Part shown: piece after piece, positions 19,519-60,650 of the stretch
How the letters are laid out: each line of letters starts with the position of its first letter
Position numbering within the stretch: position 1 is the first letter of the stretch
Assembly (NCBI GenBank): GCA_973895155.1
Contig: OZ316898.1
Coordinates: 12,923,659-12,987,658, forward strand
Length of the DNA stretch: 64,000 nucleotides
Direction of reading: 5' to 3'
DNA from: Marsupella aquatica
Lineage: Eukaryota; Plantae; Marchantiophyta
Translations under genes and position numbers: made by a program
Notes under the pieces: model-generated
Databases searched by the model: none
What the model saw: the letters and a program-made list of their open reading frames with translations, nothing else
Told to the model about the DNA's origin: nothing

Positions 19519-19850
19519 TGTTGAACTATGACGTCTTGCTTCATGACGATACAATCATTACTCATACCATTCACACGTAGTCGACACAATCTCTACGTGG
19601 TTAATCTCTTCTCCAAGGCTACGTCCACACGAATACTCAAGCTTTACTTCAAGAGTGAACGAACACACATGCTCTCCCTCTTCCTCAAGTTGCTCCGTTA
19701 CAATGAGTAAGCACACCACACCAGCGGCTTACACTAGCCGTGGTATATACAAGGTCACACACGACTAATCTAACCTCAGCTAAGACCCTAACTGTGGTTA
19801 GCCTAAGTGCCATAACCTTTGAGTCACAAGACTAAGACCAATCCTTAACA
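19519..19850 (-). repeat. 3' LTR of copia element 1
   Basis: 332-bp direct repeat of 26080-26411, adjacent to the PPT. Confidence 0.95.
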
Positions 19851-20052
19851 AACTCCCCCTTGACTCTAGTCTTGGGGACTGCAATTTATGCTATCCATAT
19901 GGGATACTCAGCGGGAAATTCTAGACAATCACCTAACCATAGGTGTCCCCCTAAAAACCATTTAAGGTTAACTAAGGGTTAACTAGAATTAAGCCGTAGC
20001 CATAACAGGATTGAGTAACCCATATATAGAAATTATATATTGTTAAGTTACT

Positions 20053-23000: not shown

Positions 23001-24205
23001 CAACATTCCGAGCGAAATCAAGTTCTTTTTCATGTCAGGAATATGTCTGATATCTTTCACTGTTCGCATAGCTCCATCAAACATCCGAATCTTCACAGAT
23101 CCAATTTCAGTAATTTGACACGGGTGATCATTCCCCATCAACACTGAACCGTTTGATACCGAGTAAGAACTGAAAAACTCTAATTTATACGTTATATGAT
23201 ATGTACAGGCACAATCCAAAATCTATTCATCACCACTATTTCTGGATGAACTCCAAAGAGCAACATCTTGTCGTCACAAGATTTCATCATCGAGCAAGTT
23301 GATCATATCAACATCAATGGTTGCGTTTGCTGATGGTTGATTAGTCTGCTTGACTCGAAAATCTCTTTTCATATGGCCGGGTTTGTTATATTTCCAACAT
23401 ATAATCGGTTTCCTTTCTAGAGATTTCTCTCTAGACCTGGATCTAGACTTAGATCGAGCCTTCTCCTTGCCTCTATTTCGCAAGGGGTATGATTATGAAA
23501 ATACCTGTTTTCGCTAGTCATCCGTTGTTGAGTCCTCCCGCGATTCACATTCAATGCACTGCCAGATGAAGATGGTGTCTGGGCATGACCCAGTTTCTTC
23601 TGTGCATCATCTGACAGCAAAGAGCTTACCACGTCATCATATGATATGGTTTTGAGGTCTCAATACAAGAGAACCTGCTTCAAACCTTGATAAGATGGGG
23701 GTAAGGAGCTGAGAAGAAGCAATGCCTTATCTTCATCTTCCACTCCCTTGCCAAGATTTGACAAATCTACAGCTAGGCTGTCGAATTCATCCAAGTGATC
23801 TTGAAGCTTGCCTCCTTCTTTTAGCCTCAAGCTCATCAAGAGAGACTTCTTGTACAACCGATCTGAGGCATCCTCGCGGTAGTACTTCTCTTAGAGGGCC
23901 TTGAATAAGGATACGCAATCCTCGTAATCGTCCAACTTCTTAATGATATGCGGCTTCAGATACAGCATAACGGCATTCACAGCAATCACTTGCTCTTGCC
24001 TCCATTTTCTCAATGTGATCTCCTCCTCACTGCTAGACTCCTCCCGAGGTGATAGTAGATGATCTAGGCCCATAGCACGAAGAATTCTCTTAACCTGCTT
24101 CTCCCGTAGCAAATAATCTGTGCGCCCATCATACTTTTCCACCTCAAACTTGACACCTCCAACTTGGATGCCATCGTTGTCCTCCCAACTTTCTCCACGT
24201 GCTAT
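20053..24205 (-). pseudogene. Disrupted gag-pol polyprotein of copia element 1
   Basis: Gag (KFEVEKYDG, LLLSSLPPSY), decayed zinc knuckle CWKYNKPGHMKRDF, protease E*ILDCACTYH, integrase (LWHCRLGH, HSDVWGP, FIDDYSR, DNGGEY, SERLNRT), RT (KARLVAKG, SLYGLKQAPRQW, LYVDDM) and RNase H (YVDSDY, HCDSQSA, KHIDIRYHF). Stops at 23891, 23660, 23223, 21711, 20683 and 20407, and a frameshift near 20919. Confidence 0.95.
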
Positions 24206-26079
24206 TGTTGTGTTGCTTCCTATATGCTTTGTTGTTTTTTCCTTCCTTCCTTCCTTCCGGTTGACTCAACTCCAAATCACAAAAAAATATTGATTTTCAC
24301 AACTTCCCAAAAATCTTAAAACTTTTCACCGCCACGTAGCCCACCAGCCTAGCAAGCCAACGCTGAAATCCGAAATCGAAACTGAGTTCCGACGAAAAAC
24401 TCTTTCACGTTTTGGTCGGGGTGGGTAAAATTCAAAAACTTCTCCCCCGTTTTGACCACCCCGGGGAATAACAAAAATTCCAAGTATCACCCGTCGTCAG
24501 AAATGCAAATCGATTAGCACACCGCGTTGCTAGCTTCAGTAGCTACGTCCTCGCCAAAAACAATCCAAAAAAAGTTACCGTTCGGACCTTGGAATCTTTG
24601 AGTAAAGGCCGAAAAACAACTCTCTATTTTTTTGGAATATTCCTTGGACTGTGCGGCAGGTCTCATAGGGGGGCCGTTCCCCCTGTTGAAGCAGTTAAAT
24701 TGGCGGGTCACTGGGCCCGGGATGCCACTTAACCAATAGGAGTGGAGGGAAGGAATTTTAAAAATGGGCCTAAAGGGGGTGTTAAGGCCCCTTATTAAAA
24801 AATACTGTCTTAAAAGGGGCACACGCGTATAGGCGACGCGAGACGGGCCAGGCAAGATACGGCCATATACAAGGGGCATACGGCGAGGAATACGTGCAAG
24901 GGTGCAAAAGGGAAGCCGGGAGGGAATGGAGGGCACGAGGCCCTATGGAGGGCATGAGGCCCTATGGAGGGCACGAGGCCCTATGAAGCATTAAAGAGGG
25001 GGGAAGGCAAAGGGCTGCGAGGGGGGGGGGAAGTGAAAAAACGCGCACGAAGGGGGAGGAGGAGCAAAAAACAGCTCGCAAGGGGGGGGGGGGAAATGGT
25101 CACGAGAGGGAGGGGGAAGGTCATCGCGAGAGGGATGGAGGGAGGGGAGGGGGGGTGGCGGGGCCCTATATGCGCCCAATGGCGCCCTATACGCGTGTGA
25201 GGGGCGGGGAAAGGGAGGGGGGAGGGGGCGTGGTATACACGTGAAAATACGGCGCGATACGCGCGCCCGGGGGTTATCGTATGCCTGGGGGGTGCACATG
25301 TATACACATAAGGGATTAAAACCCCTTTAAAACGCACAAATGTTGCCTCCAAAAAATTTGTCGTGTTACTTACTGAAAATGTTGCCGTTTCACACGAGGA
25401 AAGTGCACGTCACCGACGGGAAATGTTTCCGAAATTCACCGGCGGCGTCTGCTACTCCAGTAGAGTATAAACTTCCCGTCATGACTCCTTCACTCCACGT
25501 CAAGTGCCAATCTCAGACTCAAAATGATCACCTCGCCGTGGTCTCTCCGTTAAGCCATAGCACTTTGCGATTCTCCCCCTGATCCGAGCGTGACGTCAAG
25601 AAACCCGCTTCAGCCAAGGGCTATGTCTCCATAGCCATGGAAAAACCAGAAACGACTCCGTCACTCATTGCGTCGCACTCGGTTTACCTCGACAACAAAC
25701 CAGCTACCAAAATGATCACCTTTGCCCGATCTACGATTTGAGCTATAGGTTGTGACGCCTCGCGCACCGCAAAGCTCACACTAACGAGAAAAAGATCTCA
25801 GGTCCCCCCCGAAAGAACCGTCGAAGAAAACCGTCGAACACGAATCACAAAAAATCCAAAACGATGGAAACATAAATTCCTCAGCACCACGAACTCCGTT
25901 TAGAGATTTCTTTGCACCATTAGATAACCCTTGCCCCGATCTATCCAATGAGCCCAATACCTCCAAGTTCCATGCGACGGAACTTCGTGAAATCAACTGA
26001 CACTAACCGCTGGAAAATCCATCACGAAAAAATCTATCGTCACCTTAGCGTCACCTCCCTGGCTTGCTCTGATACCAAT

Positions 26080-26411
26080 TGTTGAACTATGATATCTTGC
26101 TTCATGACGATACAATCATTACTCATACCATTCACACGTAGTCGACACAATCTCTACGTGGTTCACCTCTTCTCCAAGGCTACATCCACACGAATACTCA
26201 AGCTTTACTTCAAGAGTGAACGAACACACATGCTCTCCCTCTTCCTCAAGTTGCTCCGTTACAATGAGTAAGCACACCACACCAGCGGCTTACACTAGCC
26301 CTGGTATATACAAGGTCACACACGACTAATCTAACCTCAGCTAAGACCCTAACTGTGGTTAGCCTAAGTGCCGTAACCTTTGAGTCACAAGACTAAGAGC
26401 AATCCTTAACA
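26080..26411 (-). repeat. 5' LTR of copia element 1
   Basis: 332-bp direct repeat of 19519-19850, followed on the minus strand (after 2 nt) by the Met PBS. Confidence 0.95.
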
Positions 26412-29868: not shown

Positions 29869-30200
29869 AATTAGCCCAATGAAAATGCAAAAAGATGTTG
29901 AGATTAGAAAAGATACCAAGGAGAGAAAAAAGAGTGACGGTGAGAAAAGTATCAAAGTGAAAAATATACCAAAGAGAGAGGAAAGGAGAAAATATGTTGA
30001 GGTGAGAAAAGATGCCAAGGATAGAAGTGATGTAAAGGTCAGAAAAAAATATTGTGGTGAGAAAGCAGTGTCAAGGTGAGAAAAGATATCCAAGTGAGAA
30101 AACAATGTTGAGGAGAAAGAATGTCAAGATGAGAAAAATAAGTCAACCAAGCAAAATGTCATGGTGAGGTGACGATGTCAAGGCAAAACATGTCTCAAGT
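29869..30200 (-). mobile_element. Non-autonomous Helitron-like fragment with minisatellite (reverse orientation)
   Basis: Purine-rich GAGAAAAGATGT(T/C)(G/A)AG units are the reverse complement of the CTCACCTCAACATCTTTT units at 33.8-35.4 kb. On the minus strand it ends in CATTGGGCTAA, like those copies. Confidence 0.55.
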
Positions 30201-33616: not shown

Positions 33617-35389
33617 TCTCCCTCCATATAGCTAAGGGCGACCACACTTGACCCTGTAACACCCCAGCCGCCCCCTGTCTTGCGTTCCCTCCCATGCTCT
33701 CACCCTTGCCACAATACATTGCCACAATAGCACCTTGGGACATACATTGCCCTTGGGACATACATTACCACAATAGCACCTTGGGACATACATTGCCTTA
33801 ATATCTTTGCCTCAACTTGACAATTTTTCTCGCCTTGACATCTTTTTATCTCCTCAACTACTTTTTATCATATTGACATGTTTTCTCTCCTTGAGATATT
33901 TTCCTCACCCCAATGTTCTTTTCAATCTCACATTGATATATTTTTCTCACCTTGCCATCTTTCCTCTAGCTATGCACCTTTTTTCTCCTCAACATCTTTT
34001 ATCACATCAGCATTTTCTCATGCACCTTGATATATTTTCTCTTCTTGGCATCTCTACTCATCTCAGCATCATATTTCATAATTTTCACATTTTTTTCTCT
34101 CATGTACATGATTTCCTCACCTTAATATCATTTTCTCACCTTGACATTTTTTTTTCTCTCATTTAACATTTTTCTCACCTCAACATCTTTTTCTCTCCTC
34201 GACATATTTTTCTCATCTCAGCATCTTTTTATCTCCTCGATATCTTTTCCTCACCTCAATGTTTTTTTCTCACCTCAACATCTTCTGGGCAACGCATGGG
34301 CATTGGGCTATTTGTATATATATATTGTGCCAAAATAATGAGACTTCACACCCATAAACTATGACAAATATTTCTATGGTTTTTCATCACAATTGTCTCA
34401 CAAAATTTGACTCCCAAAGAAAGCCTTGGAAGCAAAGCAAAGAGGGGGAGAGGCAAGGAGAAAGGGGAAGGGGGGGGGGGCACATGGATGAGAAACGAGG
34501 GAGGGAGAGGCTTCATCTTGCCCCATCTGGTCACAGGTAAGGGGTGGAAAAGGTGTCAAGTTTATTTTCTCACCTCAAAATTTGTTGCTCTACTTTACAT
34601 CTTTTTATGCTCAAAATCTTTTTCTCTCCTTTGCACACGTTTCTCTCCTCAACATCTTTTGTTCACCTAGACATATTTTCTCTCCTCAATTTTTTTCTCA
34701 TCTCAACATCTATTTCTCTCCTCAATATCTTTTCTCTCCTGGACATATGTTTATCATTTGGACATCTTTTCTCTCTTTGACATCTTTCTCTCCTCTACTT
34801 CTTTTATCACCTCAACATCTTTTCCTCACCTCGACATTATTCTCACCTCGATATCTTTTCTCTCCTCAACATCTTTTCGCTCCTTGACATCTTTTATCGT
34901 CTCGATATCTTTTCTCTCCTCGACATCTTCTATCACCTCGATATCTTTTGCTCACCTCAACATCTTTTCTCTCCTTGACATCTTTCGTGCAATGCATGGG
35001 CATTGGGCTAGTGCCTATATATATTTGTATTTAAGCATTTTGTGTTTTTTGTTTTCATTGTGATAATCTACTTATAACCCTCAACTCATTCCTGCACACT
35101 CACCTTGCACACTGAACTACACAGCGGCAACGACAACATGCATGATTGCAACCACTGAATGACCTTGATGACACATAACATGCCTCAACAATTGCCTTAC
35201 CTCGACATTTTTGCCTCACCTCGATAGCTTTGTCTTAACTCAGCATTTTTTGCCATGCCTTGACAACTTTGACTCACCTCAATAGCTCTGCGTAACTCAA
35301 CATCTTTGCCTCACTTCAATGTCTTTGCCTCACCACTACATCTTTCCCTCTCCTTTACATCTTTTGTCACCTCACAAGCACTGGGCTAG
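33617..35389 (+). mobile_element. Cluster of non-autonomous Helitron-like elements with a CT-rich minisatellite (about 18-20 bp unit)
   Basis: Degenerate units (CTCACCTC(A/G)ACATCTTTT) end in Helitron-type 3' termini: GGGCAACGCATGGGCATTGGGCTAT (34311), CGTGCAATGCATGGGCATTGGGCTAG-T (35011) and AAGCACTGGGCTAG (35389). Candidate A/TC 5' ends at 33617 and 35067. Confidence 0.65.
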
Positions 35390-36686: not shown

Positions 36687-39399
36687 ATGGCAGACTTCTT
36701 CCCTGCGCCGGGAAGAAACCATGTCTTCGTTCCTGGCCCGGTCAACATTCCCGAATCTGTAATGCGGGCCATGAACAGGAACAATGAAGATCACCGGTCT
36801 CCCGCCTTCCCCAAGCTCTCTAAGAGTGTCATAGACGACGTGAAGCAGATTTTTAAAAGCACCAAAGGCACCAGCTTCATTTTCCCCACCACAGGTTGGA
36901 TTATCATTTCCCCATCACCTTTTAAAGTCTGACCTTTTGGCTCTCTCGTGGTGGTGGTTGCTACCAAAAGTGAGCTGGACGTCTGTCGCTTCACTGAATT
37001 TGCATACGTTTTCATGTCTCTCTGAACAAGCGTTCCGATGGGTTCGTCTAGTAATCTCTGTCTTGTTGATGTTCGCTTATTGTCGATTGTCCTACTTCTG
37101 ATGGAGGTCACTTAGCACTCACGTGTAGCTGATGTTTCCTGAATTTCTTTCTTGAACTATACTGTTGTAAATGGGATTCTCATGGGGTTGATGTGACTCT
37201 CTCTCCCTCTAGTCTACCTGTGGGTAATTGCGGATCCATTGTAGGTCCAATGCAGCTTCGATTCTTCTGGTATCTATTTTCAGCTCGATGTGCCTCTTGC
37301 CGTATGGGGCTGGTTTATTTCGAACATCATTTCATTGCATGACATTGATTATCGGTTATCGGTGGTTAATAGATTAGGAGGTGAGATGGGTAGTAATAGC
37401 CTGTACGAAGAATGGGTTTGTGAAATTGTTGCTGACTTTGTCGGCGTGTAGGAACCGGCGCATGGGAGAGCGCTCTGACGAACACGCTGTCGCCAGGCGA
37501 CAAAGTTATCTCGTTCCGGCTTGGTCAATTCAGTCTGTTGTGGATAGATCAACAACAGCGCCTAGGATTTGACGTGGATGTGGTGGACATCGAATGGGGA
37601 GCTGGCATTGACCTCGATATGCTCAAATCCAAGTTAGTTGCAGATAAATCCCATTCAGTCAAAGCCTTGGCTGTCGTCCATAACGAGACGTCCACAGGTG
37701 TCACCAACGACATCGCAGGCGTTCGAAGAGTCTTAAGTAAGCTTACACGTCCTTCCTACTTCCCCAAATATGTTATAGTAAAGTTGTTTTGGCTCCTTTA
37801 AGACCCAGAGGCAGTCTCTATATGTCGCAACCATGTTGTACGCAAGTTAATTCGCTGCCTGAATTAGAGAATTGTCGCCGAAAGGAGGCCCAAACACTTT
37901 CCTGAGACCATTTAGTCAAAGTACTACCAGGTATGTTTCAGATACAGAAGAAGTCCATAACAGTTCGCTGTGACGATGTCAGTTAGAGAAGTACATGGCG
38001 AATTGCAGATTGAGATGGGGCCCAATGTACTTCTCTGAGACTCTTTTTAGATAGAGACCAGAGGAGAATTTCAGGTTGAGATGAGGCGCAGAGAAGGTTT
38101 TCGACGCCATTTTGAATAGACAACCAGCTGTAGATGAGGCTTAGGGCTTCTTTCTAAGCCATGTCTAGTCAGAGAATTACTGCCTGACAGTTGAATGCAG
38201 GCAGATCATTTTATTCATAGTTTGATTCGCATTTTGTTCTGGCAGATGAAGCGGGTCACCCGGCTTTGCTTCTTGTGGATGGAGTATCTTCAATAGGGGC
38301 CATCGAGTTCAAAATGGACGAGTGGGGAGTGGACGTCGCTCTTACTGGGTCTCAAAAGGCTCTGTCTTTGCCGACTGGTCTTGGTATTGTTTGCGCTGGC
38401 CCGAAAGCGCTGGAAGCCGCCAAGACTGCCAAGTCAACTAGGGTGTTCTTCGATTGGGCGGATTACATCAAGTTTTACGCTGCCGGGTCGTACTGGCCCT
38501 ACACTCCATCCATCCAACTCCTCTATGGTCTCCGCGCAGCTCTCGACCTCCTCTTCCAGGAAGGCCTTGACAACGTGATTAAAAGGCACCATCGGCTTGC
38601 AGAATCAACAAGGTATAGATTTGGTGCATCTCTTTTCTAGCACATTCAATGACTTTATGCGTCTGAATATGTGATAGCAGATGGACAGGAATGTCTGACA
38701 ACCTTGGTTAAAGGTGTTGGATAATCTTGCTCGTAAGGTAGCTCCTTGTACGGGCAGAGCATTGGAATCAAAAAGCAATTCTGTGCTGTGAACTGGAGCT
38801 GGGGGAAGACTCTCTCTCACGTCTGATTCCAGGTTTTTCTTAGATCTTTGATATCGATGGATGCTGTTGTTGTATGAAGGCAAGCGGTGAAGGCTTGGGG
38901 ACTCAAAATTGCCACACAAAAGGAGGTATGGCACAGTGACACGGTAACAGCAGTCCTAGTCCCCTCCCACGTTGACAGTGCCAACATTGTCAAGTTAGCA
39001 TGGTCGAAATACAATCTCAGCTTGGGAGTCGGCCTGAACAAAGTTGCTGGCAAGGTGTTCCGAATTGGTCACCTGGGAAGCTTGAACGAGGTAAAATTAA
39101 AATTCAATGGATCTTGGTTTCTTGACCTTGTTCTCCAGTTGGGTCTGTTGGACGATTACTGTCTGCTGGATTGGCAATTTTGGATTCTATTCTACGCATC
39201 TAAATAGACCAGGCCCCTGTGGTTACTATGGAACTAATCATCGTTATTCATACTCATGCAGTTGCAACTGCTGGGAGCTCTCGCTGGCGTGGAAATGGTG
39301 TTAGTGGAGTGTGGGGTGAACATAAAATTGGGCAGCGGGGTCGCAGCAGCGTCAGCTTATTTGTTGAAATCAACCCCTTTGATTTCCTCCAGAATCTGA
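36687..39399 (+). CDS. AGT1: Serine:glyoxylate / alanine:glyoxylate aminotransferase (peroxisomal, photorespiratory), 5 exons, 402 aa
   Basis: Exons 36687-36894, 37452-37736, 38246-38612, 38880-39090, 39262-39399 (1209 nt, open). Motifs PGRNHVFVPGPVNIP, VHNETSTGV, LVDGVSSI, TGSQKALSLP (PLP lysine) and FRIGHLG; C-terminal PTS1-type SRI. Probable 5'UTR intron at about 35819-36680. Confidence 0.97.
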
Positions 39400-40540: not shown

Positions 40541-41428
40541 TTTTGGAAAGAGGAACACTATTTATTTCCAGGCTTTCACATTCAGTTCCCCCTAAAACGC
40601 CATCTATCAAGGTATAAAATTCAGATTTTCCCCAAATCACTGTATCTCCCTAGAATAGGACTTCTTAACCAATTTCAACAATTTAGAGGGTTATCACACT
40701 ATGAATCAAAGTTGCACCTCCTTACCCAAAAGATGTTTTCATACATAGAATCTCAAATAGTATCTTTGGTATGGAGCACATTGTTTGACAGACAACTCAG
40801 ATCGACCATTTTTAGCCATAACTATAATCTCAAATAGTATCTTTCCTTTGGATACATGATAACTCCTTTGGCTGTGAAAGAGCTGCTCGGTCCATCGGAC
40901 TTGCCAGCTCAAAGATTTGACCCATCCGTGTATCACCTCCGGGGCTGTAATGCACATTACCTCAACAATAGGGCCTTTAGAAAAATTCCATTTCATGGCC
41001 CTCGTTTACTCAGGAATTCTGCATGACCCTCCTGTGGGGGTTCACTCAAGGACTTTGCGAGGTTTTCAGTTAGTAGCTTCAGTGCCTTAGGCAGGTGTTG
41101 GGGACTATGCCTTTCTATTTTATGGTCTTCCTGAGAATTATCCTTTGTGTTGTCCCATCTCCTGCTTTTCAGATCTTTCTACCAAAATTGTGTTTGTTGT
41201 TCTTTGGTAGAGCATATCTTTACCTGATGATTCTAAATGGGGAAGATTGGTGGCTACAGGTATGAGTGTGTCCGTGCCACCTCCTGTCATCAGTCTATCA
41301 ACTCTGTGGGTGGAAAATCCTGGCTCTAGTCATAATCATTTCTTATCGTCAGTCTGAAGTCTGTATGGACGAACAGCAGCTGTGGCATCCTGTCTGCAGT
41401 CAGTACCACATTCTGTGTAGGTCTTCTG

Positions 41429-41637
41429 TGTTGTAAAACACTTGCTCGTAAGTCACTTAGCAGATTAAGCTTTTCTCTTAGCTTAACCTGCGCCTCCATT
41501 CTTACTTCCGGCCGCTCTCTTCCCTACTGTCGATCCTAGGTTACTACCTTTCCTCCATTGATTCCCCTTTCCCTAATTCCTACTTATAGTGAGTCCTGCG
41601 CTCAGTCCTATGTAGCAATAGATTAGTGTTACCAACA
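41429..41637 (+). repeat. 5' LTR of copia element 2
   Basis: 209-bp direct repeat, immediately followed by the Met PBS. Confidence 0.95.
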
Positions 41638-41958
41638 TGGTATCAGAGCCATGCTCTGATTAGTGTCCTCAGATCAGCGACCTCAGGTATCATGCGTGTT
41701 CAGGTAGAAAGTTCCCTGACACTTAGTACCAGCAGCATTCTAGATTTACTCGCTGTGTACTCAGGTTGAAAGTTCCCTGACTAACACGAGCACTGCTTAG
41801 AACATTCCTTGCTTGATTAGAGCAACTACTGACATTCATAAGATTAGATTTGACTCGATCGACTCATTGCTTTGCTCAGGTTGAAAGGTTCCCTGACACA
41901 TCACTATTCTGCATTTTTTACCATTCTTCTCATTCGTGAATCAATCATTTTTTTTACC

Positions 41959-44900
41959 ATGGAACTACTGAGGATATTCTTCGACACCGATAAGCTAGAT
42001 GGCACCAGTAACCACATGGCCTGGACCATTGTGGTTAAGAACCTTCTGAAAAAGGAAGACGTGTTTCATGAACTCAACTTCAACGCCAAGCTTGACGCCA
42101 ACGGCAACTTCATAGATGGCGGAGCCCATCTGACCGCCAAGGAGAAACAGAAGAAGAAGGACAAAGCTGTCGCCATCCTTGCATCTATAGTGAAGTCCAA
42201 ATTTCTGTCCACAGTGGACAAGTTCTCCGACGATCCAGCCAAGTGTTGGGAGCATTTTCATCAACGCTTTGGTGGAGATCTACTACAACGCCAGATGTTC
42301 CTGATGCAAAAGCTTCAGACTACACACATGGTCGAGGGGAGCTCTGTGGAACTCTACATCAACCGGATCAACAAGATGGCCGGACAGCTTTCCAGCATCA
42401 ACGCCGAAGTGGACGAAACACGTCTCATGCATATCGTACTACAAGGCCTTCCGCTCAGCTGGAATGCATTTGTTTCTATTTTCAGTGCTGATCTCTCTCG
42501 TACTCCTAAACCAAATTTTTCTAACCTTCTTGAACGTTTGCAATCTGATGAATACTGGAGGAAGGCCAAACAGGCTCAGGCTGAGTCTCACGAAGAAGCT
42601 ATGGCTGTTACACGTTCATTCACTCGCAGCCGGGGACGACCTTTTCATCGCCCGGATTCTTATCCACCTCGCAACAACTTCCGCAACCCTCCGCCTCAAT
42701 CTCAATCTCGGCCCAATCCTGCTCTCTCAGCTGGACGTGGGCGGCGAATCGGCACCTGCAACTACTATGGAAAGACCGGTCACTGGGAACCAGAATGTGA
42801 TCTAAAAAAACCAGATTCTCAAATCGCTGATCTTCAACTCAAAGCTGCTGGGATACGCAGGTACCAACCTCAAGCCAACAGTGTTGAGACCTCTCCTGAC
42901 TACTACGATGGATCTGAGGACACCACAGAAGTCTACAACAACAATGAGCACGGTGAGTATTTTGAAGCAAACTACTCTGAGCTTGACACAACTAGCCATA
43001 GTCCTAGTGAGTGGATACTCGACTCCGGCGCAAGCACTCACGTTACAGGAGACAATTCTGTCTTCCGCACTATCAACGCCGGCTCTCACTCCAAATCAGT
43101 GACTACTGCTAGCGGTACTCGGCTGCCTGTAGCTGGACATGGTACCATTTCTATTGATCGCAATAAAGAGATCAACAAAGTTTTGTACGTGCCTGGTCTT
43201 CAACGAAATCTTCTCTCCATTGGGTCCCTCACCGACGCAGGCCATCTCATTCTTTTCAATTCAAAATCCTGCTTTGTTTTTGACAAGGACAATCCATCTA
43301 ACATCTTCCTCAGAGGAGCTCGCGATCCTCGCAACCGCCTCTACAAACTGCGTCAACCACTGCCGTTAGTTGCTTCACACTCATGTCATTCCGGCTTACT
43401 TCAGCAGTCCCCTATTTTGCTCACAGAAGTCTCTCACACCGACACTGTCGACCTCTGGCATCGTCGCCTCAATCACGTGAATTACCAGATGGTACATCAC
43501 ATGTCCATGGGGTCCTTAGTCACTGGGATACCACCCCTTCCTCGGGTAAAACGGGTTTGTGACACCTGTGTTCTAGGCAAACACCATCGGGACAAAGCTC
43601 CCAAATATTCTCGCTCTCGATCTTCTCGACCTCTGGAACTCATTCACTCTGACCTCTGCGGACCAGTTCATGGGCCCGGTCCCACCAAGTATATTCTCAC
43701 TCTTATCGATGATTTTTCACGCTTGGGTTTACTTCCTCGCTTACAAAAGTGATACGTTCGCAAAATTCAAGGACTTCAAGATTCTTGTTGAAAACCAATT
43801 CAACCACAAAGTTGGCTGTCTTCGCTCAAATCGCGATGGGGAATACATGTCTACAGAATTTCTATCCTTTTGCAGGCTCCACGGCATTCGACGTCAACTA
43901 ACCGTTGCTGACTCTCCACACCAAAATGGCATTGCAGAATGCAAAAACCGCACCCTACTTGAAGCTGCCCGGACCATACTAATTGATTCTGGTTTTCCAC
44001 TGTCTCTCTGGACTGAAAGTATCCGTGCAGCTAATTACGTCCAAAATCGATCCGGCACACGCGCCCTTCATCAGACTACTCCATTTCAGGCTCTACATGG
44101 CTCCAAGCCCGACCTCAGCCACCTCCGTGTTCTTGGTTCAACTGCATACGTTCTTATACCGGCCTCTCATCAGACCAAGCTCGGCATCAAAGCCATCCGC
44201 ACCACCCTTCTCGGCTATGACGATCAATCTAAGGCCTATCGTTGTTTTGATGCTACACGCCAACGCATTCTCATATCCAAAGATGTTACATTCGACGAGA
44301 ATATCATGGGCATTCACGTCACCAATCCTACTGCCGCCCAACTAGTATTTCAATCTCTCCTCACTAATGATATTCCTGCAGCTTCGATCGCTCCAGCAAT
44401 TCTTGCTCCAGAGGGGGAACCAGTGCCCGATCAAGCACCTGATCAAGAGCCTCCAGTTCCAAAAGAGGAGCTTGTCTGCGAACCTCTGGAACCAGTATGT
44501 GAACCAATTACGCCTGGGCCACTTGTTATTAATCCTGTCCCACCAACACCTCAACCAGCGCTACGACACTCTCTTCGGACCCGACAACCACCACCTTGGC
44601 ACAACGACTACAAAATGAGCAGCAATCTTGTCGAGGCAACTAGATCCGAATGTGGAAATCTATCTGTCAAAGAGGCTCTCAAACACCCAAGATGGAAGAA
44701 GGCCATGGAAGATGAAATCAAATCTCTCCTTGACATGGGCACCTGGGAGCTAGTCTACCTCCCTGCTGGACGACGCGCCCTCACAGCAAAATGGGTCTTT
44801 CGTGTCAAGCCCGACTCAACCAGATTTCAATTGAAAGCTAGGCTCGTTGCACGTGGTTTTGAACAAAAGTTTGGCATCGACTACAATGAAACCTTCGCCC

Positions 44901-46261
44901 CTGTAGTCAAATGGTCCACTCTGCGTGCTGTCATCGCCCTCGCCGTAGCCAACGGATGGGAGCTACACCATATGGACGTCATCATTGCTTTCCTCAATGG
45001 CACCCTCACAGAAGAACTCTACATGCAGCAACCTCAAGGTTTTGAGACTCCTGGAAAGGAAACAATGGTCTGCCGCCTACGACGATCACTCTATGGTCTC
45101 AAACAATCTCCCCGGGCCTGGTACAGTGAAATCGACTCTCACCTTCGAGTAACTGGATGGACCCATAGCACTGCAGATCCGAATCTCTACTTCTATCACT
45201 CTGATGGGGCGCTCCTTATTCTCATGCTCTATGTTGACGATCTCCTCATCACCGACAGCGATTCTGGCAAAATTGCTGACATCAAATCCCATCTCCAACA
45301 CAAGTACCAGATGAAGGACCTCGGCTTGGCCCAGAAATATCTTGGCATTGAGTTCCTCCGAACACCTACTGGCCTCATTTTACACCAAGCTACCTACTGC
45401 CAGGAGCTCATCAACGAATTTGCCGTCAACACATCAACGTCAATTCCACTCCCTGAAGGCCACATCCTCACAACTGATACTAACACCCCGCCATTCGACA
45501 CAAGTGCTTATTGCCATGCTGTTGGCAAACTTATTTTTTAAACTCATACTCGACCTGACATCTCCTACGCCGTCGGCATCGTCAGCCGCTACATGAGCAC
45601 TCCACAACAACGACACTGGGATTCTGTTCAAAACATTCTCAAGTACCTACACGGCACTTCTGACTATGGGATTACTTTTGTCAATACATCTACGACCTCC
45701 CTTCAAGGATTCACCGACGCTGATTTTCTTGGATGCCCGGAAACTCGTCGCTCCCGTGGTGCTTATTTGATTCAACTAGCGAATGGTCCCATCTCATGGT
45801 CCAACAAGCTTCAAAGTACCGTCTCTGACAGCACCACTGAGGCAGAATACAAGGCACTTTCCGAAGGGGCTAAGGAAGCTGTCCATATTCGCAGACTACT
45901 TGCCGAACTTGATCCTCACTCCAAACTTACCGTTCCTCTCACTTCTTCAAACTCATCCATTCATCACAATCTCTCCCATGCACACATTCCTACCTCTGCT
46001 GACATCCACTTACACTGTGACAACCAGGGATCTATCAAGCTCGCCAACAATCCCGTTTTCCATGCACGCACCAAACACATCGAAGGCAAACACCATTTCA
46101 TCCACGAAAGGGTGCTAGAGGGGGAAATCTCATTATCTTACATCAACACAAATGAAAATCCCGCCGACATCTTCACCAAGCCTCTCTCAAAACTCAAGTT
46201 TGAGAAACATTGCAATTTTATTGGAGTGAAATCTATTTCAGGAGCACAGAAACACTCCTGA
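41959..46261 (+). pseudogene. gag-pol polyprotein of copia element 2 (one frameshift, one premature stop)
   Basis: ATG 41959; gag (VLQGLPLSW), knuckle CNYYGKTGHWEPEC, protease WILDSGASTH, integrase LWHRRLNH / HSDLCGP / LIDDFSR. Frameshift near 43720 (resumes WVYFL). RT KARLVARG, SLYGLKQSPRAW, LYVDDL. TAA at 45539-45541 in LIF*THTRPD. RNase H FTDADF, STTEAEY, CDNQG, KHIEGKHHF, ADIFTKPL, stop at 46261. Confidence 0.96.
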
Positions 46262-46275
46262 AAAACACCTTCTTT

Positions 46276-46740
46276 CTACATTCCATATTTCGACAAGAAA
46301 TACTCTGCCTCCCGCAATGTACAAAAACTCTGATGACAATTCCCTGAATAACCATTGACCTCCTTACTTGCTTCTGCCCAATTTAGGTAGATTCCTGGCC
46401 TACGCCCGACTGCCACTGCATAATAACAACGTCTATACAGCATCGGCATTCTATCAGCCTGACCTTCTTGGGAGACCTAAGCTTCAGAGGGGGCACTCGG
46501 CTCATGCACTTTAGCTCTCCTCAATGACACTAACATTTGGCTCTCCTGCTGCTCACCAATCGGCACCTGAGGATCCTTCCTCTCCTCCTCTGTCTTCGGC
46601 ATTCTGATCAGCTCCTCGACATCCTGCAAACGAATCCATCGGGAGACTCCCCTACATCCCTTTGACAGCAATTGCAGCAATCGCGCCACCACTTCCAAAA
46701 CACCACATATACTCACCACTAGCACATGACGGAACGACAT
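46276..46740 (-). pseudogene. Antisense accessory ORF of copia element 2 ending in an RNase H1 hybrid-binding (Cauli_VI / viroplasmin) domain; 155 codons with one internal TAG
   Basis: Manual translation: MSFRHVLVVSICGVLEVVARLLQLL...EPSAPSEA*VSQEGQADRMPMLYRRCYYAVAVGRRPGIYLNWAEASKEVNGYSGNCHQSFCTLREAEYFLSKYGM*. Matches the YYAVxxGRxPGIYxxWxExxxxVxGYxGxxxxxFxTxxEAxxF signature. The ATG at 46449 gives an intact 57-aa ORF, below the ORF-track cutoff. Confidence 0.85.
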
Positions 46741-46829
46741 TCTTGCCTTTCCTTCCTCTCTCTTCTCCTAAGTTATTTTGTGGACATCACCGTCCTCCTT
46801 TCTCTCCCCAAAACTTACTCGAGAGGGGG

Positions 46830-47038
46830 TGTTGTAAAACACTTGCTCGTAAGTCACTTAGGAGATTAAGCTTTTCTCTTAGCTTAACCTGCGCCTCCAT
46901 TCTTACTTCCGGCCGCTCTCTTCCCTACTGTCGATCCTAGGTTACTACCTTTCCTCCGTTGATTCCCCTTTCCCTAATTCCTACTTATAGTGAGTCCTGC
47001 GCTCAGTCCTATGTAGCAATAGATTAGTGTTACCAACA
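46830..47038 (+). repeat. 3' LTR of copia element 2
   Basis: 209-bp direct repeat, preceded by the PPT and followed by the TSD. Confidence 0.95.
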
Positions 47039-47722
47039 TTCTGCAGCAAAGTTAGTACATGTAATGAACTCTTGGACCCATCTTTTGCTTATTAATCATT
47101 CTGCAGATTTTTTTCTCTTTCTCTGTCGGTGTTCTGTCTGCTGCAGTTGACGCCAACAAATTTTCTACAATCTTGTTGGAAACAGTTCTGAGACCTCTTC
47201 TTAGTTTTCGTTAGTTTGGTCCTTGATCAAGTGTACTTGCACGCACCGCAAGTCCTTGACAATCTTGTTGAAAACAGCTTGGAGACTTCTTAACTTTTAT
47301 TTATTTACTCCTCCGCCAAATTGTACGTGTATTGTCTGCCTTCGAGATCTTCAATTTCATTCTCTTGATTTCTTCATGGGTTAAGGAGGACTGACTTTCC
47401 TAGCTTGCCTTTAAATTGGTATTGATTAAAAGTCCCGTGTATGCTTGTAATGCGAATTAGTGGCCCATTTGCTAACATACTCAACTGTATTCCGATTGTT
47501 TTCATTGACGATCGAACCTATACTCAAGTCTTAGATTCTAAAGCGGGCTTGGTTCGAGTTGGATGCATCTTTGTTGAAGAAATGTCATAGGAAGAAAATT
47601 TTGTTTCGCAGCATCATGCATATTCATGCATGTAGTTTGTTACCGAGGTCTATGAGGTGGAGATTCTGTTTATTGTTGTGTGATTCGATATTTCTAAATT
47701 TCTGTGCAGTTACATATTTCAA

Positions 47723-48833
47723 ATGGATTCTCAAGACAACTTTTCTTTGTGGGGGGAACTACTTCCAGTGATCCCCAATGACGTTGTTTTGGACGAGATT
47801 GCCACAAAACTGTCAGGGACAGATGTTTCTCGCATGTCTTCACTAAGTAAATGTTGGTAACAAGTAATTCAAGGTCCAGTTGTCTATGATGCCAGAGTTT
47901 GCTGCCATTCAACAGAGACTTTACTAGCGCTCAGGAGTTTTGTTGGAAGTTCTGAAAAATTTGAAGAAATTTCTCTTTACTCCCCCAGAGAAAAAACTCT
48001 GTACCGACTTCCTCCAATTCCAGATCTTCCCAAGCTGTTCAAATTAATTGCACTCGATGGGAAATTATATGCAGTAGGAGGAATCGGCACTTGTGGAGCG
48101 CGTTACCAAAATGTGTATGTGTTGGATCTGGCTGGACAAAGGCAGTGGAAGAAGTGTGCAAGCATGCTAAAACCAAGAGTTTACTTTGGGTGTGGTGTCT
48201 TGTGTGGAAAGATTTATATTTGTGGTGGTTGGAATATGCATGGAATCACGGTGGAAAATATGCGTGGAGCAGAGGTGTATGATCCGAAGGTGAACGCCTG
48301 GTTTCGCTTAAAAGCCATGATATCAGGGCAAGTGTTACCTAAGGTTTCATATGTGGGCGAGGAGCTCTTTGTGCAAGGTGGGATGCGAGGAGGATTTTGG
48401 GCTGGCATCCTCATTGGCAGGCGTATCATCCACTCAGGGATCAGTGGAGCATGCTGGAACCATTAGGATGGGTCCTCGGGACAGAATCACAGAAAGAGTG
48501 TTCATGGGGCAAGGAAAGTTCTATTCAATGAGCTCAGATGGCATTCATGTCCACAATACTGAACAGAATTTAAGGGCACATCGGTGTGCAATAGCATGTG
48601 ATGGACTTGGACCCATAGACTCTATTAGGATTGAGCCACATTACATTCTTCTTGTGGATAATGAACTGTTAGCAATGGTGTAGTGGACGAGGGCAGACAA
48701 TGGAACAGGAGGAAGGTCTCCTTCAAAGCCTGGGATTCCATACCAACAAAGGAAAGGTTGTGTGGTCAAAAGCACCCCACCCTTTCACACTTGTAAGCAA
48801 GTTGGATTTTTCAATGTGTACTGTTAGGCTTTG
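47723..48833 (+). pseudogene. F-box/kelch-repeat protein pseudogene
   Basis: ATG 47723; F-box LLPVIPNDVVLDEIATKL...SSLSKCW*(47858-47860). Kelch repeats LPPIP..ALDGKLYAVGG, VYVLDLAGQRQWKKCASM, GKIYICGG, AEVYDPKVNAW. Frameshift near 48.4 kb, further stop at 48681, probable original end CTVRL* at 48833. Confidence 0.85.
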
Positions 48834-54666: not shown

Positions 54667-55695
54667 ATGGTGCAATCGAAGGGAGAGCGCGTCCGGTACT
54701 ATGAATTTCATTCCACTTTTTTCTCTGTAATGATGCACCAGCTTTGTCTCGAGGCGCTCTGTTCGGTAAGACCTCGTTGTTGGTGTTGCTCGCTTCGGAG
54801 TTCCTGAAATTGACTTTGTTGAGCACATGTCTGATTGTTTTGCAGGCTGTATGTCCGGGGCATTGTTCTCGGGTACAAGAGGTATGGGTGACAACTCTCG
54901 TTTGCCTCTGTTAGTTCTGTGACTCGTTTGAGTTTCTGTGCCGGTCCTCAAGTTAGTCTTTTCTTGCCGGCTGCCAACTACTTGAGTTGAGACTCATCAA
55001 GGTCGCTCATCAGGAAATCATGACAGACTCGTGTAGCTTTCAAGACTGCTGATAGTAGTATTCCCTTAATTGGTCATTGTTCTTTGGCCTTCACTTAGCT
55101 GAACTCATTAAGCATAACTTGTCGAAACTTGCACTTGTTCTGTGGCCTTGGTGATGAGTGTATTCTCGGTTCGATGCAGATCGAAGTCGAACCAGTACCC
55201 CAGCACATCACTCGTTCAAATTGAAGGGGTGAACACCAAGGAGGAAGTCAATTGGTACTTGGGAAAGAAACTCGCTTATGTTTACAAGGCGAAGACTAAG
55301 AAGAACGGCAGCCATTTCCGTGTTATATGGGGAAAGGTAGCCCGACCTCACGGTCACAGCGGAATCGTAAGAGGGAAGTTTAGAAAGAATCTTCCTCCCT
55401 CAGCTCTGGTACGACCTTTGTCCTGCTATCCTTTTTTCAGCCAATTTTCCATCATGCTTTGCAATTTACAGCTTGGAACTATATGTGGTATACATATGTG
55501 GAAAATGTGGATTCGCGCTTCTCGGCTAACCTGGGTTAGGGTTTTTACAAGGGATTTTTCTAAAGTTGCATGTCGGCAGAATTAGGGCTTCAGTTTTGCC
55601 ACATATTCTGGAGCATCGTTCATCTCTTGACGAGGTCGTTTTACTTGTGACAGGGAGCCAAATTGAGGGTTTTCCTCTTTCCCAGCAGCATATGA
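54667..55695 (+). CDS. RPL35A: 60S ribosomal protein L35a (eL33), 4 exons, 111 aa
   Basis: Exons 54667-54695, 54846-54881, 55180-55408, 55654-55695 (336 nt, GT-AG). Protein [45 protein letters not shown]...[41 protein letters not shown]. Confidence 0.97.
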
Positions 55696-58600
55696 AGGAT
55701 GTCGCAGTGATCTACGAAGTAGCAAGATAGAGGACCTATTGTAGGTGGTCATGTTTAGTAGTTGTGGCTGGCATTAAATTCAACTGTTGCTATCAGCATC
55801 CCAGTAGCTCCTCAACGTAAAATATCTCGCCTCAATTTTTTGACCGGATACATTGAGCTTTGTGAATGTATGCTATCAAGTGACTGGCTTTCAATCATAA
55901 TCGACGATGACATTACCTGATCTCACGCTTCACTGGGAATAAACGACAGGAGATGTATATCCGACTGTCTGCTCGTCTTCAAAAGCAGGCAGAAGATTTA
56001 GTGATGCGAATCCTTCCCTGAATATGCAACCTCGTTGGAGCTTCTGTCAAGCCTAGAGTTTGGTATTCTCTACTGTATTTTGATTTGACGGTAGCCAGGA
56101 TTCTGCTGGAAAATGGGGTCCTCTGCGGTGACCGAAGACTCGTTTGCGGAACCCTAAATTTGTGAGAATTCTACTATATGTTGCCACGCAAAGCTTCATT
56201 TGCACTAAACCAGTAGACTACTGTCTTGGTTAGTCTCCCGATTTAAATCTTGGCACGACGGAAAGGAGTAGCATATATTCCCGCAGAAGCCGAATGAAAA
56301 TGATCTTTGCGGTGAGGGGAATCGTTTTACTTTGCATGTGAATGTAATCTCTGCCTCTGCCTCGTTTGGTTTGAATGACGTTGCATTTTCTCATGCTCTT
56401 TGGTCAAGTCGCCTCATCAAGATCTGTTTCTCGTGGGTCCAAGCGAGGACGTAATGGAACGATATTTTCGAAATTTAGTGTCGGACATTTGTCTAGCACG
56501 ATGGTCGGTGAAAGTTCCAAAGTCCTCAGCTGGAATCATAAAATATCCTTGTAGATGGACTACTCTTGCTGCCTGAGGAACATATACGGAGAAATTGAGG
56601 AGGAAAGAATGGCTCTCTGTTTTCGCTTTCGGTTCGACTATGTTCTGCTTTCAGTTGGGCGTCTGGCTGGTGCAGTTCTATGTGTTTTACCAGATTCAAT
56701 AGGGTTTTCCCCTCCCCGAACTTCCGATCTGGTTCGCTCTCCTCTGATTTTCAGTTGGTCTTTACAGCCGGGTCTTTGTGGCTGGTTTCAAGTTGTGCGT
56801 TTCACAAGATAATTGTGGGTACGATATCCGATGAGCTCTCTACTCTGATTTCAGCTGGAGTTTTCGGTGTTTAAACAAAATTGGATGTGTTTCCCCAGCC
56901 GAAGACTAATGGCGGATTGGAGAGCTGGGGCTGAGTTTCGCTTCTGCTACCCAGCAGCCCTAAAACGATGACTTGTCCTGCTTTTTAAAGGTTGGGTTTC
57001 TCTCCTGTTCCTGGAAATCAAACATGTGCCTGCCTGAGATATGCAGAAATGCATAAGTAATAGATCCTGGATCTTAGTTGAGTGCCACCTTGGAACCAGA
57101 TGCAAACAGAACTCATGGAACAATAATCTTTGTAATTGAATTTTTTTATAGAACCTCTTATCAAGAAAATAATTACTAAATTATAGAACCTCTCGGCAGA
57201 TATGAGGGACGTGAGGCCTGGTTTTTTCAATCTCCGGACTTTCGTCACATCGGTGTCATCATGAATTGCTGTAGGATGACATGAACTGACTCGACTTGGA
57301 ACCAGGACTGTGGCCTTTCCTGTCAGTGTTATCTCTTCATAGATTGGATTGTTTTCATGCCGGATGCATATACTTACTAAGGAAGGGAAACGAGCATTTT
57401 CTTCTTGTCTTTGCGAAAAAAAGGCATAACAAGAGTATATTTTGTCTTCGTGAAAAATAGAGGATATGCCTTTTTTTCAGACTCAGCTTAATTGTCAAAG
57501 TAAGAATCCTAGTTGCAAGCCAAAACCCACTGATTTTCTTCTAAAAATGATCCATTGGCTTGCAAACCATCTTCCACCAAAAGAAGACCAAAGTGTTTTG
57601 TTTTTGAAACACTTGCTCAACTCATACCATGACAAAAATTTATCCTGACCTCCACAAGCTAGCGGTGTTGATGATGTGAAGCACACTGGTAGTTTGATTT
57701 CCTGTTCACAGCAATAGTGTTATTCACGCTCGTATTCACACACTTTCTCCATCCTGTTGCAGGTTCTTTCTTTAATCCATGATCGTGGTTTTTGACTTTT
57801 TTCTTGGATGAGAAGTGGACCGATGCTGGAGTAAATCTACAATGCACTTGTGAGAGAGTAAATTTAACAATGGACCTGTGCTTTACCACATTGCCATGCA
57901 TACATTCTAGCTAGTTAACATAGGTGAACATTCATATATTTTTAGCATTGGATCCGTGCTTTGCGACTTAAAGGAGAGACACAATACTAAAATGGATACA
58001 TGCTCAACCAATTTAGAATGGGTCCATGCCATGGCCGGAGATCAAAGAGATCTTGACCAAGTTGAGCCAGGATTGGCATTTATTTGAGATCACCCCTCAG
58101 TGAGGAAGAAGGTCAGCTAAGTTAGGCATGATTGAAGATAATATTGTTGATCTAGACAGCAGATTTCTTTTAAACACTAGCGGTTCTTTTTAAATTTAGG
58201 AAGGAGGTCAGGTGGCTTTTTTGACACATTGTGAGACATTGGGTTGAAGCTATATACTGGGCTACAGTTTGTTATGTACCATTTAAAGGATTTGAGTGTA
58301 GTTAGTAAGGAAAATTGGTCTACCATGTTTTTAGGATTCGCGATGTGGTGTAATGATGTGTCTTGTTTTGGGGTTTGTAAACAACAAGACCTCTGCACCC
58401 ATCAACATGACTGCATAGATGACAGATTCGGAAAACCATTATTTCATTGCCTCGCTTACAAATTTTGACGTCACCTCAACATATTATAATGATTCCATTG
58501 CCGCAACAAACACATGTCATGACAACATGGCCACAACGATTGCATGGTGGCAACAACAATTTTAGTGAAACATTTTACAGCTTTGAATTGTTATTTTGGA

Positions 58601-58789
58601 TTGAAGATTTTAAATTCCTTTTTATTTGTTAAACGGGCAAAATTGCAACTACTCAATTGCCTTGTTGACTTTATAATGCAAATTTTACTTAATATATTCC
58701 GATGCTGTGAAATATGAGTCATAATGATTATGCTTAAATGAATTTAAAAACACCTTCCCTTGGTTACTTGAGGTGGGGCCCCAGGGATT

Positions 58790-59080
58790 GGGATGACACT
58801 AAAGGGGAGGGAGAGGAGGGGAGGCCAAGATAGGGGGATGTCACCCTCAACCCAGGGTTGCGTGATTGTGCCTGCCTTGCGCTCCCATGACCATGCAGTC
58901 ATTGTAGGCATGGTTTCTTTATGGCCATGCTGTCAATGTTACTTTGTTGCATGGACCGCATGGCTACAACAAGAACACGAGTGCAATTACACATAAGACA
59001 CCTCAACAACTTCCTTGCCTCACCTGCATTTATTTGCCTCACCTAGACATCCTTTGTGCAACGCTTGAGTATTGGGCTAT
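58790..59080 (+). mobile_element. Helitron-like fragment of the same family as the 33.6-35.4 kb cluster
   Basis: ACACATAAGACACCTCAACAACTTCCTTGCCTCACC resembles about 35170-35220. Ends GTGCAACGCTTGAGTATTGGGCTAT. Left boundary approximate. Confidence 0.5.
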
Positions 59081-59446
59081 TCTTAAGAAATAACCAGAAG
59101 TGACATATAGAGCGTTGAGAGGGAGAGGAGACCGTACTCCCTTTAGTGTGCATGAGGGTAAGGTGTTTTGTAGTAAATATAAAGAAATACCTGAAAATAA
59201 AGGTATTGAAAACACAAAAGTACCCAAAAAAGTAATATGGAAGGGAAATACACATTGGAGCAAAGATTTTTGGGTGTTACTGGTACTAACATGGAAGGAG
59301 ATTCTGGTAGACTATTGACCTTGGTAAATATTTGATCCTCCTTGAAGATTTATTACATATGGAGTCATTTGTCTGTTGGGTTTTTACATATGTAGGAGTA
59401 GATGTCTTTTGCTTGATTGGCAGATGGTTAATCCTCCTGGATTTCA

Positions 59447-60272
59447 ACCCTGCGTTAAATCTACAACAAGTTAATGCTCCCCCATTTTTGTGGGGATCTG
59501 TACACTGCCTGTCCCAGTCCCTAATGTTGCTGCCCTGCTCCTGTCCAAGTTTGCCAGAACATAAACCAAGACTCTTCTTTGTCACCCGCTCCGGCCCGAT
59601 CAACTTTGTGCCATCGACTTCGGGTTTATGCTTTGGCACCTTTCATTTGTTGTTGCCTGCTCCGGCCCAATAGACTTTCATTGTGTCATCAACTTCTTCC
59701 TGGTGGAGTCTTGGTTTATGTTCTGACAACACTTCTCCAATTGAGTCAAGTTTGTTTTGTAATAGAGTCTAAGTGTTGCAGAGCCTAGTACTTTGGTAAG
59801 AGTCAAGATTGATAGAGTCTTGGTTAATGTTTTGCCAAAATGCTTCTTTTCTATGGAGTAGTAATATATGTTTTGGCGACACTTCTTTCCCAATGGATTC
59901 ATGCCTGTTTAGTAATAGAGTCTAAGTGTTAAGGCAAAGCCAAGTACTTTGGATAAGAGTCAATCATGATTAATGATAGAATCTTGATTTATGTTCTAGC
60001 AAACTTGGGCCGGAGTGGGCAGGGGGAGTGGGTAGCAGCATTGGGGACTTGGGCCGAAGGGGGTGACAACAAGTGATGGGTGCCAGAACATAAACCTGAA
60101 GTTGATGACACAAAATTGATCGGGCCGGAGCGGATGACAAATGGTAGAGTATTGGTTTATGTTTTGGCAACTCCGGCCGTAGCGGGCAACAGCATCGGGG
60201 ACCGGGACGGGCAATGTATGGGGCCCCAAGAAAAGTGGGGAGCATTAACTTGTTGTAGATTTAACGTGCGGT
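59447..60272. mobile_element. Non-autonomous long-TIR foldback DNA transposon (MULE-like)
   Basis: Arms of more than 200 bp in inverted orientation, both starting ACC...CGTTAAATCTACAACAAGTTAATGCTCCCC, flanked by an exact 9-bp direct repeat TGGATTTCA (59438-59446 and 60273-60281). No transposase inside. Confidence 0.8.
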
Positions 60273-60650
60273 TGGATTTCACGCTTTGATCAGTAGCTCA
60301 GTTCTCTGAGTTGGCTGGTTCCCTCGCTGGGGTTAAGTTGACCCTGATATTGTGGCTCTTTTCTTTTTCTTTTTCCCATTTTTACCCTTGTCCTTGGGGC
60401 TGAATGTGTTTCGCCTCTGGGTGAATTTTGGTCATTGGTTGCATGTGCTCTGGCCGTTTTACTCCCATTTTTACTTGGTTTCACTTTTTCTCTAAGTAAA
60501 GTGCTGCTTTCAAAAAAGAAAGAAGGGCGTATCACTATAATCTCTATCAAACCCTAAATTCAAATACAGAGCTACTGCATTGCGCTACAGTAACTGTCCC
60601 TGATTACCTAAACCCCTTGTGTACATTTCTCTTTGCATTTCTATTGATGG

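Follow-up and report, generated by a model that had tools for sequence, protein, structure and literature searches.

For decades, extra genes in antisense orientation have been recorded in plant LTR retrotransposons with no function known for them (PMC7264820). Closest to the gene analysed here are the aORF-3R genes of Ty3/gypsy elements (Retand/TRP28, Grande gene23, RIRE2 and PvRetro13), which are antisense and of unknown function (PMC7264820, PMC11963269, PMC6317226). For copia elements the REXdb survey, in its accessible sections, gives almost no 3' reverse ORFs (1% in SIRE) at a cut-off of 250 codons, and PF01693 is absent from its table of eORF domains (PMC6317226); a copia ORF of 155 codons would escape that survey because of the cut-off. 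PF01693 is matched by caulimovirus P6/TAV (PMC7102451) and by capE, a captured gene of the Pleurotus ostreatus Helitron HELPO1.3 that was found in one long copy (PMC4289320), and orchid Ty3/gypsy elements carry an additional ORF for an AlkB m6A demethylase of demonstrated activity (PMC9289625, PMC12786077). Our search of the open PubMed Central and bioRxiv literature found no report of PF01693 in copia elements or in extra ORFs of LTR elements, and the conserved antisense accessory gene of a copia clade that we present here, which encodes an RNase H1 hybrid-binding domain, is apparently undescribed.

The gene was found in a 64,000-nt stretch of Marsupella aquatica contig OZ316898.1 (positions 12,923,659 to 12,987,658), all of which we call the window. 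Its host is a young Ty1/copia LTR retrotransposon of 5.6 kb, assigned by domain order, LTR pair, 5-nt target-site duplication (TSD), primer-binding site (PBS) and polypurine tract (PPT), with the following features:

41424-41428, plus strand: 5' TSD, TTCTG, identical to 47039-47043
41429-41637, plus strand: 5' LTR, 209 nt, TG..CA, two differences from the 3' LTR
41638-41649, plus strand: PBS read from the sequence, which we take to be of the initiator-Met tRNA type
41959-46261, plus strand: copia gag-pol (gag, protease, integrase region, RT, RNase H), from Pfam matches and the ORF list
46821-46829, plus strand: PPT, read from the sequence
46830-47038, plus strand: 3' LTR, also 209 nt and TG..CA, paired with the 5' LTR with two differences
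47039-47043, plus strand: 3' TSD, TTCTG, identical to 41424-41428

Along gag-pol, Pfam matched PF14223 (gag), PF22936 (protease), PF13976 (GAG-pre-integrase), PF25597 (SH3-like) and PF07727 (RVT_2), downstream of which the RNase H motifs close the copia-order series; the integrase core, split by a frameshift, gave no Pfam match in this element. The copy is dead: its gag-pol is shifted out of frame near 43720 and interrupted by a stop in frame at 45539-45541. The RNase H keeps its catalytic motifs. One X2 contig (side 30, depth 44.7) joins both flanks of the element and omits the whole of 41429-47045, which makes it a likely empty site, so that the insertion may be polymorphic. By eye, the sequence just 5' of the PPT (46812-46855) is nearly complementary to the LTR at ~46847-46855, a pairing that could leave the PPT in the loop of a hairpin; read on the minus strand, the same stretch also has the consensus of a splice donor.

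Elsewhere in the window, a second, unrelated copia at 19519-26379 (minus strand; LTR copies at 19519 and 26080, 98% alike; broken by stops) has Pfam matches to integrase and RT, and between its pol and 3' LTR holds no antisense frame longer than 73 codons and no PF01693 match; it is an in-window negative control for the antisense gene. Degenerate arrays of an 18-19-nt pyrimidine-rich unit, in both orientations and with up to 21 copies (29986-30137, 33800-35370 and 58447-59073), are possibly subterminal repeats of a DNA transposon, and a long imperfect inverted repeat at 59438-60281 (arms of 93 and 98 nt, 79-84%) is MITE- or foldback-like. A Kelch-repeat (F-box/Kelch-like) gene with in-frame stops at 47700-48700 (plus strand) is probably a pseudogene. 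Of 34 frames, 6 gave a match and one more a weak match; the window is gene-rich, and the host-gene pieces, which fit a plant genome, are:

70-702: DUF565 gene piece
3979-5817: cofactor-independent phosphoglycerate mutase gene piece
14869-15339: HVA22-like gene piece (weak)
37436-38640: class-V aminotransferase gene piece
55118-55585: ribosomal protein L35Ae gene piece

An earlier sequence-only reading had placed, between pol and the PPT, a minus-strand frame of 155 codons that opens with the ATG at 46740 and is broken by one TAG. Its coordinates and peptide were as that reading gave them, the single internal TAG (46479-46477) is codon 88 of the frame, and 14 nt separate the antisense stop (46278-46276) from the pol stop (46259-46261), so that the two genes lie tail-to-tail. 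On the minus strand we distinguish:

46276-46740, minus strand: very probable antisense accessory gene, 154 residues plus stop, with one premature stop here; relatives P0128, P0131, P0281-P0287 and L001 are intact
46297-46425, minus strand: RNase H1 hybrid-binding domain (PF01693), residues 106-148, from Pfam, PDB sequence search and alignment
46477-46479, minus strand: premature stop, codon 88, different in all covering contigs of X1, X2 and X4
46630-46740, minus strand: hydrophobic then basic predicted helix, residues 1-37, from hydropathy and from helix 2-60 in the P0128 model

Over all six frames from the pol stop to the PPT, the longest open stretch is that of the antisense frame (96 codons, compared to 44-71 in the others), and the gene, though short, occupies the whole pol-PPT gap. 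A host RNase H1 gene interrupted by the element was ruled out, the frame lying wholly between the LTRs.

Sister copies were compared by aligning to the element the contigs of four out of six runs, X1, X2, X4 and X5, one of which may be the window's own source. X1, X2 and X4 contigs cover 29-30 of the 30 element bins with many variants, and the family is hence multi-copy in these three runs; X5, with a small share, barely covers the antisense gene and leaves 46479 uncovered. At 46479 all 11 covering contigs (three from X1, four each from X2 and X4) differ from the window, at whole depth. The codon-88 stop is missing from every one of them and is private to the window copy; the sequence-only reading had described it as a single C>T from CAG. 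X1, X2 and X4 also contain contigs whose match to the window breaks off between 46126 and 46433 and resumes close to the PPT. A further contig, in X1 and X4, has a match confined to 46334-46380 (window 46304-46402); in the unlike letters that follow, the antisense frame, read by eye, is open and domain residues are kept. It appears to represent a third family of these organisms, more distant than the others.

A Pfam scan of the part of the frame after the internal stop matched PF01693 with E 3.7e-17 (62.7 bits, cut-off 21), and the part before the stop matched no Pfam family. The domain ends six residues short of the antisense stop. In a PDB sequence search, yeast and human RNase H1 entries alone were returned (three sequences, E 5e-10 to 9e-8). 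The assignment of the domain to the RNase H1 hybrid-binding type stands; 'caulimovirus viroplasmin-like' goes no further than the name of the Pfam family. All 12 aligned members match PF01693, with no other Pfam family at E 0.01, and a catalytic RNase H domain is accordingly absent from the antisense protein. The structure model of P0128 (mean pLDDT 72) predicts a helix at 2-60 (pLDDT 83-98), followed by a disordered stretch (65-107) and the domain (111-161, pLDDT 78-85), the last with three strands and two helices like 1QHK and 3BSU; in Foldseek the top six rows for this model were 1QHK and 3BSU (probability 0.77-0.98, E 0.08-1.2, none at E 0.001). Profile and predicted structure, the two checks that had been proposed for the domain, thus gave a strong Pfam match and a fold that ranks the RNase H1 structures first. 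The P0284 model (pLDDT 37) was unusable for the fold, and a modelled two-copy P0131 complex scored 0.00, which counts neither for nor against.

The hydrophobic N-terminus that had been read from the sequence was borne out, with a best 19-residue Kyte-Doolittle mean (KD19) of 2.12 in the window, and is present in four of the six proteins scored (window, P0128, P0131 and P0284; KD19 1.56-2.79) and not seen in P0281 or P0302 (0.75 and 0.74). In its N-terminal segment P0284 resembles the window (2 of 5000 shuffles as good) but neither P0128 nor P0131 (1019 and 4460 of 5000 shuffles). In L001 (region 1086-1254) the antisense gene starts 80 nt from the PPT-like contig end without the hydrophobic segment of P0284, and the P0281 cluster (15 members) begins at the same Met as L001, which suggests that the N-terminal helix was lost in the L001/P0281 subfamily. 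Where it is present, this hydrophobic helix may direct the protein to a membrane or to bodies.

Relatives were sought with several methods. A word-based search for homologues of the read-through protein gave 39 candidates, none at E 0.001, a blank that reflects the sensitivity limit of that search since HMMER and profile searches did find relatives. The full HMMER scan matched 1718 proteins at E 0.001, and among the 150 matches listed two align over the whole length, both free of stops: P0128 (163 aa, 44% identity, E 1e-25) and P0131 (156 aa, 42% identity, E 5e-24). A profile search over 4838 candidates retrieved 10 proteins at E 1e-8, namely three already known and seven L001-like, one L001-like cluster having 15 members, nine of them of 211-213 aa. 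Antisense-type frames are open over 156-259 codons, share 27-45% identity with one another and align without gaps in the conserved domain. Stand-alone PF01693 is common, since 18 of 20 chosen relatives (tree neighbours or top matches among the 150 listed) have no RNase H domain.

We also scanned metagenomes with the RNase H of the clade and obtained 39 loci, one of which, L001, answers the proposal that the same cassette be looked for elsewhere: it is a diverged copia locus (RNase H 62% identical over 165 residues) with an open antisense frame of 213 residues whose stop lies 18 nt past the pol stop, tail-to-tail as in the window, on a contig that ends at a PPT-like motif. The remaining 38 loci (30-57% in their best segments, with many near-duplicates among them), 31 of which have at least 600 nt of downstream sequence, gave no PF01693, and scans of viral contigs and prokaryote genomes yielded no loci. 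The layout is thus seen directly in two elements, the window and L001. Further linkage comes from contig sizes and sources shared between antisense proteins and RNase H clusters: P0131 with P0009 (1843/1845), P0284 with P0073 (6943, three contigs each) and P0287 with P0006 (3268). Such size-matched linkage, in which orientation is not visible, was found for 3 of 11 clade RNase H clusters compared to 0 of 92 outgroup lengths; the remaining 8 of 11 have no size-matched partner, and no copia element could be tied to P0128 or P0227. One check of the size-matching is P0302, which by eye is identical to the L001 frame and matches L001's length (1254).

In a FastTree phylogeny of RNase H (122 rows) the window, L001, P0009, P0006 and P0073 fall in a 13-member clade (support 0.993) made up entirely of unnamed proteins, which splits into two subclades that mirror the two types of antisense domain, each type being one side of a branch in the domain tree (93/93, 100/99); a single origin of both types was not rejected, at a p-AU of 0.187 (47 columns, 54 of 364 domains). 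Clade RNase H sequences have ~15-20 extra residues before the CDN motif (window 45900-46020, P0003-P0023), a segment that recurs in relatives lying outside the clade in which the antisense gene is known.

Between the window and L001, the 46 domain codons differ at 21 first, 18 second and 34 third positions (p = 5.6e-4), and 16 of the 21 identical domain residues use different codons. The corresponding pN and pS were 0.41 and 0.91 (0.25 and 0.84 for the RNase H control), pS values at which synonymous sites are saturated. Eleven stops interrupt the sense frame that shares those third positions, which rules out a sense-strand cause of the conservation; a chance match to PF01693 was likewise rejected. 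Compared to P0131, the window is identical at 32 of 46 domain positions and 19 of 68 linker positions (p = 1.8e-5), and in subfamily-II pairs the domain was significantly more conserved than the linker in two of five (p 0.045 and 0.0016; 0.35, 0.053 and 0.12 in the others). Third-position bias, a second copia in L001, intact relatives and the private nature of the stop argue for a selected gene of the clade instead of a one-off capture. Altogether, with a significant Pfam match and sister copies that do not carry the stop, we regard the antisense frame as very probably a selected protein-coding accessory gene of this copia clade. Neither the Pfam result nor the sister copies gave the outcome that the sequence-only reading had named as refuting it.

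With RNase H1 numbering assigned, as we assume, to the aligned columns, W43 is invariant among the aligned members, and Y29, G34 and G38 are conserved beside it. The patch equivalent to human F58-K59-K60 reads H-Q-K in 8 of the 12 members and H-Q-S/A/G in the other four, H-Q-S being that of the window; at the K59 position all 12 have Q, a residue found there in 32 of 352 other domains taken from the full HMMER scan, 293 of which have K or R. F58-K59 presumably belongs to the DNA-facing side of the domain, judging from the 3BSU contact map. In human RNase H1, W43A or deletion of F-K-K abolishes hybrid binding, and K59A/K60A lowers hybrid affinity ~10-fold (PMC6846478). As the patch reads H-Q-x in 12 of 12 members, hybrid binding by the antisense domain is probably weaker or retuned; the domain might bind weakly or bind something else, and the H-Q variant might differ in duplex specificity. 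On structural grounds, H-Q might favour dsRNA.

Signals for expression are weak leads. Just one TATAA occurs in the LTR, in minus-strand orientation (46989-46985, in the 3' LTR copy), weakly indicating a candidate antisense promoter, and the antisense mRNA would start from a promoter in or near the 3' LTR, apart from gag-pol. Two upstream ATGs (46900 and 46787) lie between this TATAA and the antisense start, and one AATAAA (46222, minus strand) lies 54 nt past the antisense stop.

For the role of the protein we lean, at somewhat below an even chance, towards shielding in trans of the element's dsRNA or RNA:DNA hybrids from silencing enzymes or RNase H1. A non-catalytic hybrid-binding domain on a flexible linker would bind the element's own dsRNA or RNA:DNA hybrids, its binding perhaps shifted from strict hybrid recognition given the H-Q in place of F58-K59 in all members; bound duplexes would be protected from host silencing enzymes or host RNase H1, and this protection would be the selected benefit. 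Shielding is favoured because the protein cannot cut, is untethered to an intact RNase H and has an altered patch; binding without cutting fits a protein that lacks a catalytic domain in an element with an intact set of RNase H motifs, and the invariant W43 also speaks for it. The product of a separate antisense gene would not have to be released from the Pol polyprotein, in keeping with action in trans. Caulimovirus P6, which uses the same domain, is a silencing suppressor. Counting against shielding are the two upstream ATGs on an LTR-driven transcript, the change in F-K-K itself (K59 to Q in 12 of 12), which may weaken or redirect binding, and the domain-over-linker constraint that is significant in just two of five subfamily-II pairs. 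Present evidence does not tell shielding from a cofactor or tether role. The idea that catalytic and hybrid-binding moieties form two halves of one RNase H1 is borne out as to the tail-to-tail layout and otherwise weakened, the RNase H motifs of the element being intact, the gene separate and F58-K59-K60 changed.

A rather unlikely alternative is a cofactor of reverse transcription that enters the virus-like particle and lends RT/RNase H a hybrid-binding arm, aiding RNA removal, PPT selection or strand transfer like the arm that cellular RNase H1 has in cis. The hybrid of reverse transcription is the obvious substrate, but the RNase H1 domain works by tethering to its enzyme and a separate gene would need its own packaging signal. 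RNase H of LTR elements is described as having lost a subdomain and to be perhaps weaker (PMC5603734), yet the motifs of this element's RNase H are intact. The extra ~15-20-residue segment before the CDN motif could be a docking site, although it also occurs outside the 0.993 clade in relatives with unreadable 3' regions, and the mirroring of two RNase H subclades by two antisense subfamilies, as inheritance with pol predicts, follows from physical linkage alone. Unlikely too is self-restraint, in which antisense RNA and a protein sequestering genomic RNA limit copy number, or a scaffold that gathers element RNA at assembly sites, membrane-bound or condensed. LTR elements can be silenced in trans by their antisense transcripts (PMC12786077, PMC7264820), and the antisense unit would overlap the pol end (AATAAA at 46222, minus strand), but in this host the family is young and has many copies; the long N-terminal helix and disordered linker of the P0128 model would suit a scaffold, but the helix is apparently gone from the L001/P0281 subfamily, which keeps the domain.

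An integration tether, binding both host R-loops and the integration complex and so steering insertions to transcribed, gene-rich DNA, seems to us quite improbable: the domain family binds hybrids, the window copy lies in gene-rich DNA ~0.7 kb from the Kelch-repeat gene fragment and some gypsy antisense proteins are nuclear (PMC7264820), but a strongly hydrophobic N-terminus in four of six proteins (KD19 1.56-2.79) is odd for a nuclear tether, the patch that selects hybrids is altered, and a single insertion site says nothing on preference. Very improbable, and already largely refuted, is a captured fragment without function hitch-hiking in the 3' region of the element. The broken window copy, the missing link of P0128 and P0227 to copia, the lack of a size-matched partner for 8 of the 11 RNase H clusters of the clade and the X1, X2 and X4 contigs whose match to the window is interrupted from 46126-46433 to near the PPT would agree with it; against these stand frames that are 27-45% identical to one another, stay open over 156-259 codons and align without gaps in the conserved domain, a third-position bias on the antisense strand while the matching sense frame has 11 stops, and sister copies without the codon-88 stop. 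Returning to shielding, we propose more tentatively that an undescribed copia clade has kept an antisense, retooled hybrid-binding gene as a duplex shield or counter-defence since before its two subfamilies split, in which case its function would converge on the use that caulimovirus P6 makes of the same domain.

Antisense genes have resisted functional study mostly because their proteins resemble nothing tractable, and this one has a domain of solved structure with known binding residues, as well as intact natural versions (P0131, P0284 and P0302) that make the role of such genes testable. Copia elements, thought to be nearly free of antisense extra genes, carry short ones that surveys at 250 codons would miss, and shielding, if true, would be a new means of retrotransposon resistance to the host.

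Compared to the N-terminal domain of RNase H1 (1QHK from yeast, 3BSU from human), the antisense domain is alike in profile, predicted fold, Y29, G34, G38 and W43, and differs in lacking a catalytic domain in the same chain, in lying C-terminal to a helix and linker, and in F58-K59, which is H-Q in 12 of 12 members, with K60 varying (K in 8, S, A or G in 4). With caulimovirus P6/TAV it has PF01693 in common, both being accessory proteins of reverse-transcribing elements with an N-terminal helix before the domain; P6 is a much larger, sense-strand viral protein, no likeness beyond the 44-residue domain was found by Pfam in the 12 members, and the matches included no sequence named as P6. The capE gene of HELPO1.3 is transposon-borne PF01693 too, but in a fungal rolling-circle DNA transposon, which involves no reverse transcription. 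As with the orchid AlkB ORF, a host-type nucleic-acid domain has been fixed in a plant LTR lineage, there a gypsy one with an enzyme and another domain. The TRP28-type domain of Retand (PF04195) was not found in the 12 members, and the host is copia-ordered, not gypsy. With the gypsy aORF-3R genes our gene nevertheless shares its position between pol and the 3' LTR, its antisense direction and its presence across copies and related families (here contigs and predicted proteins), and it differs in that its host is Ty1/copia, its domain is PF01693 and the gene is short.
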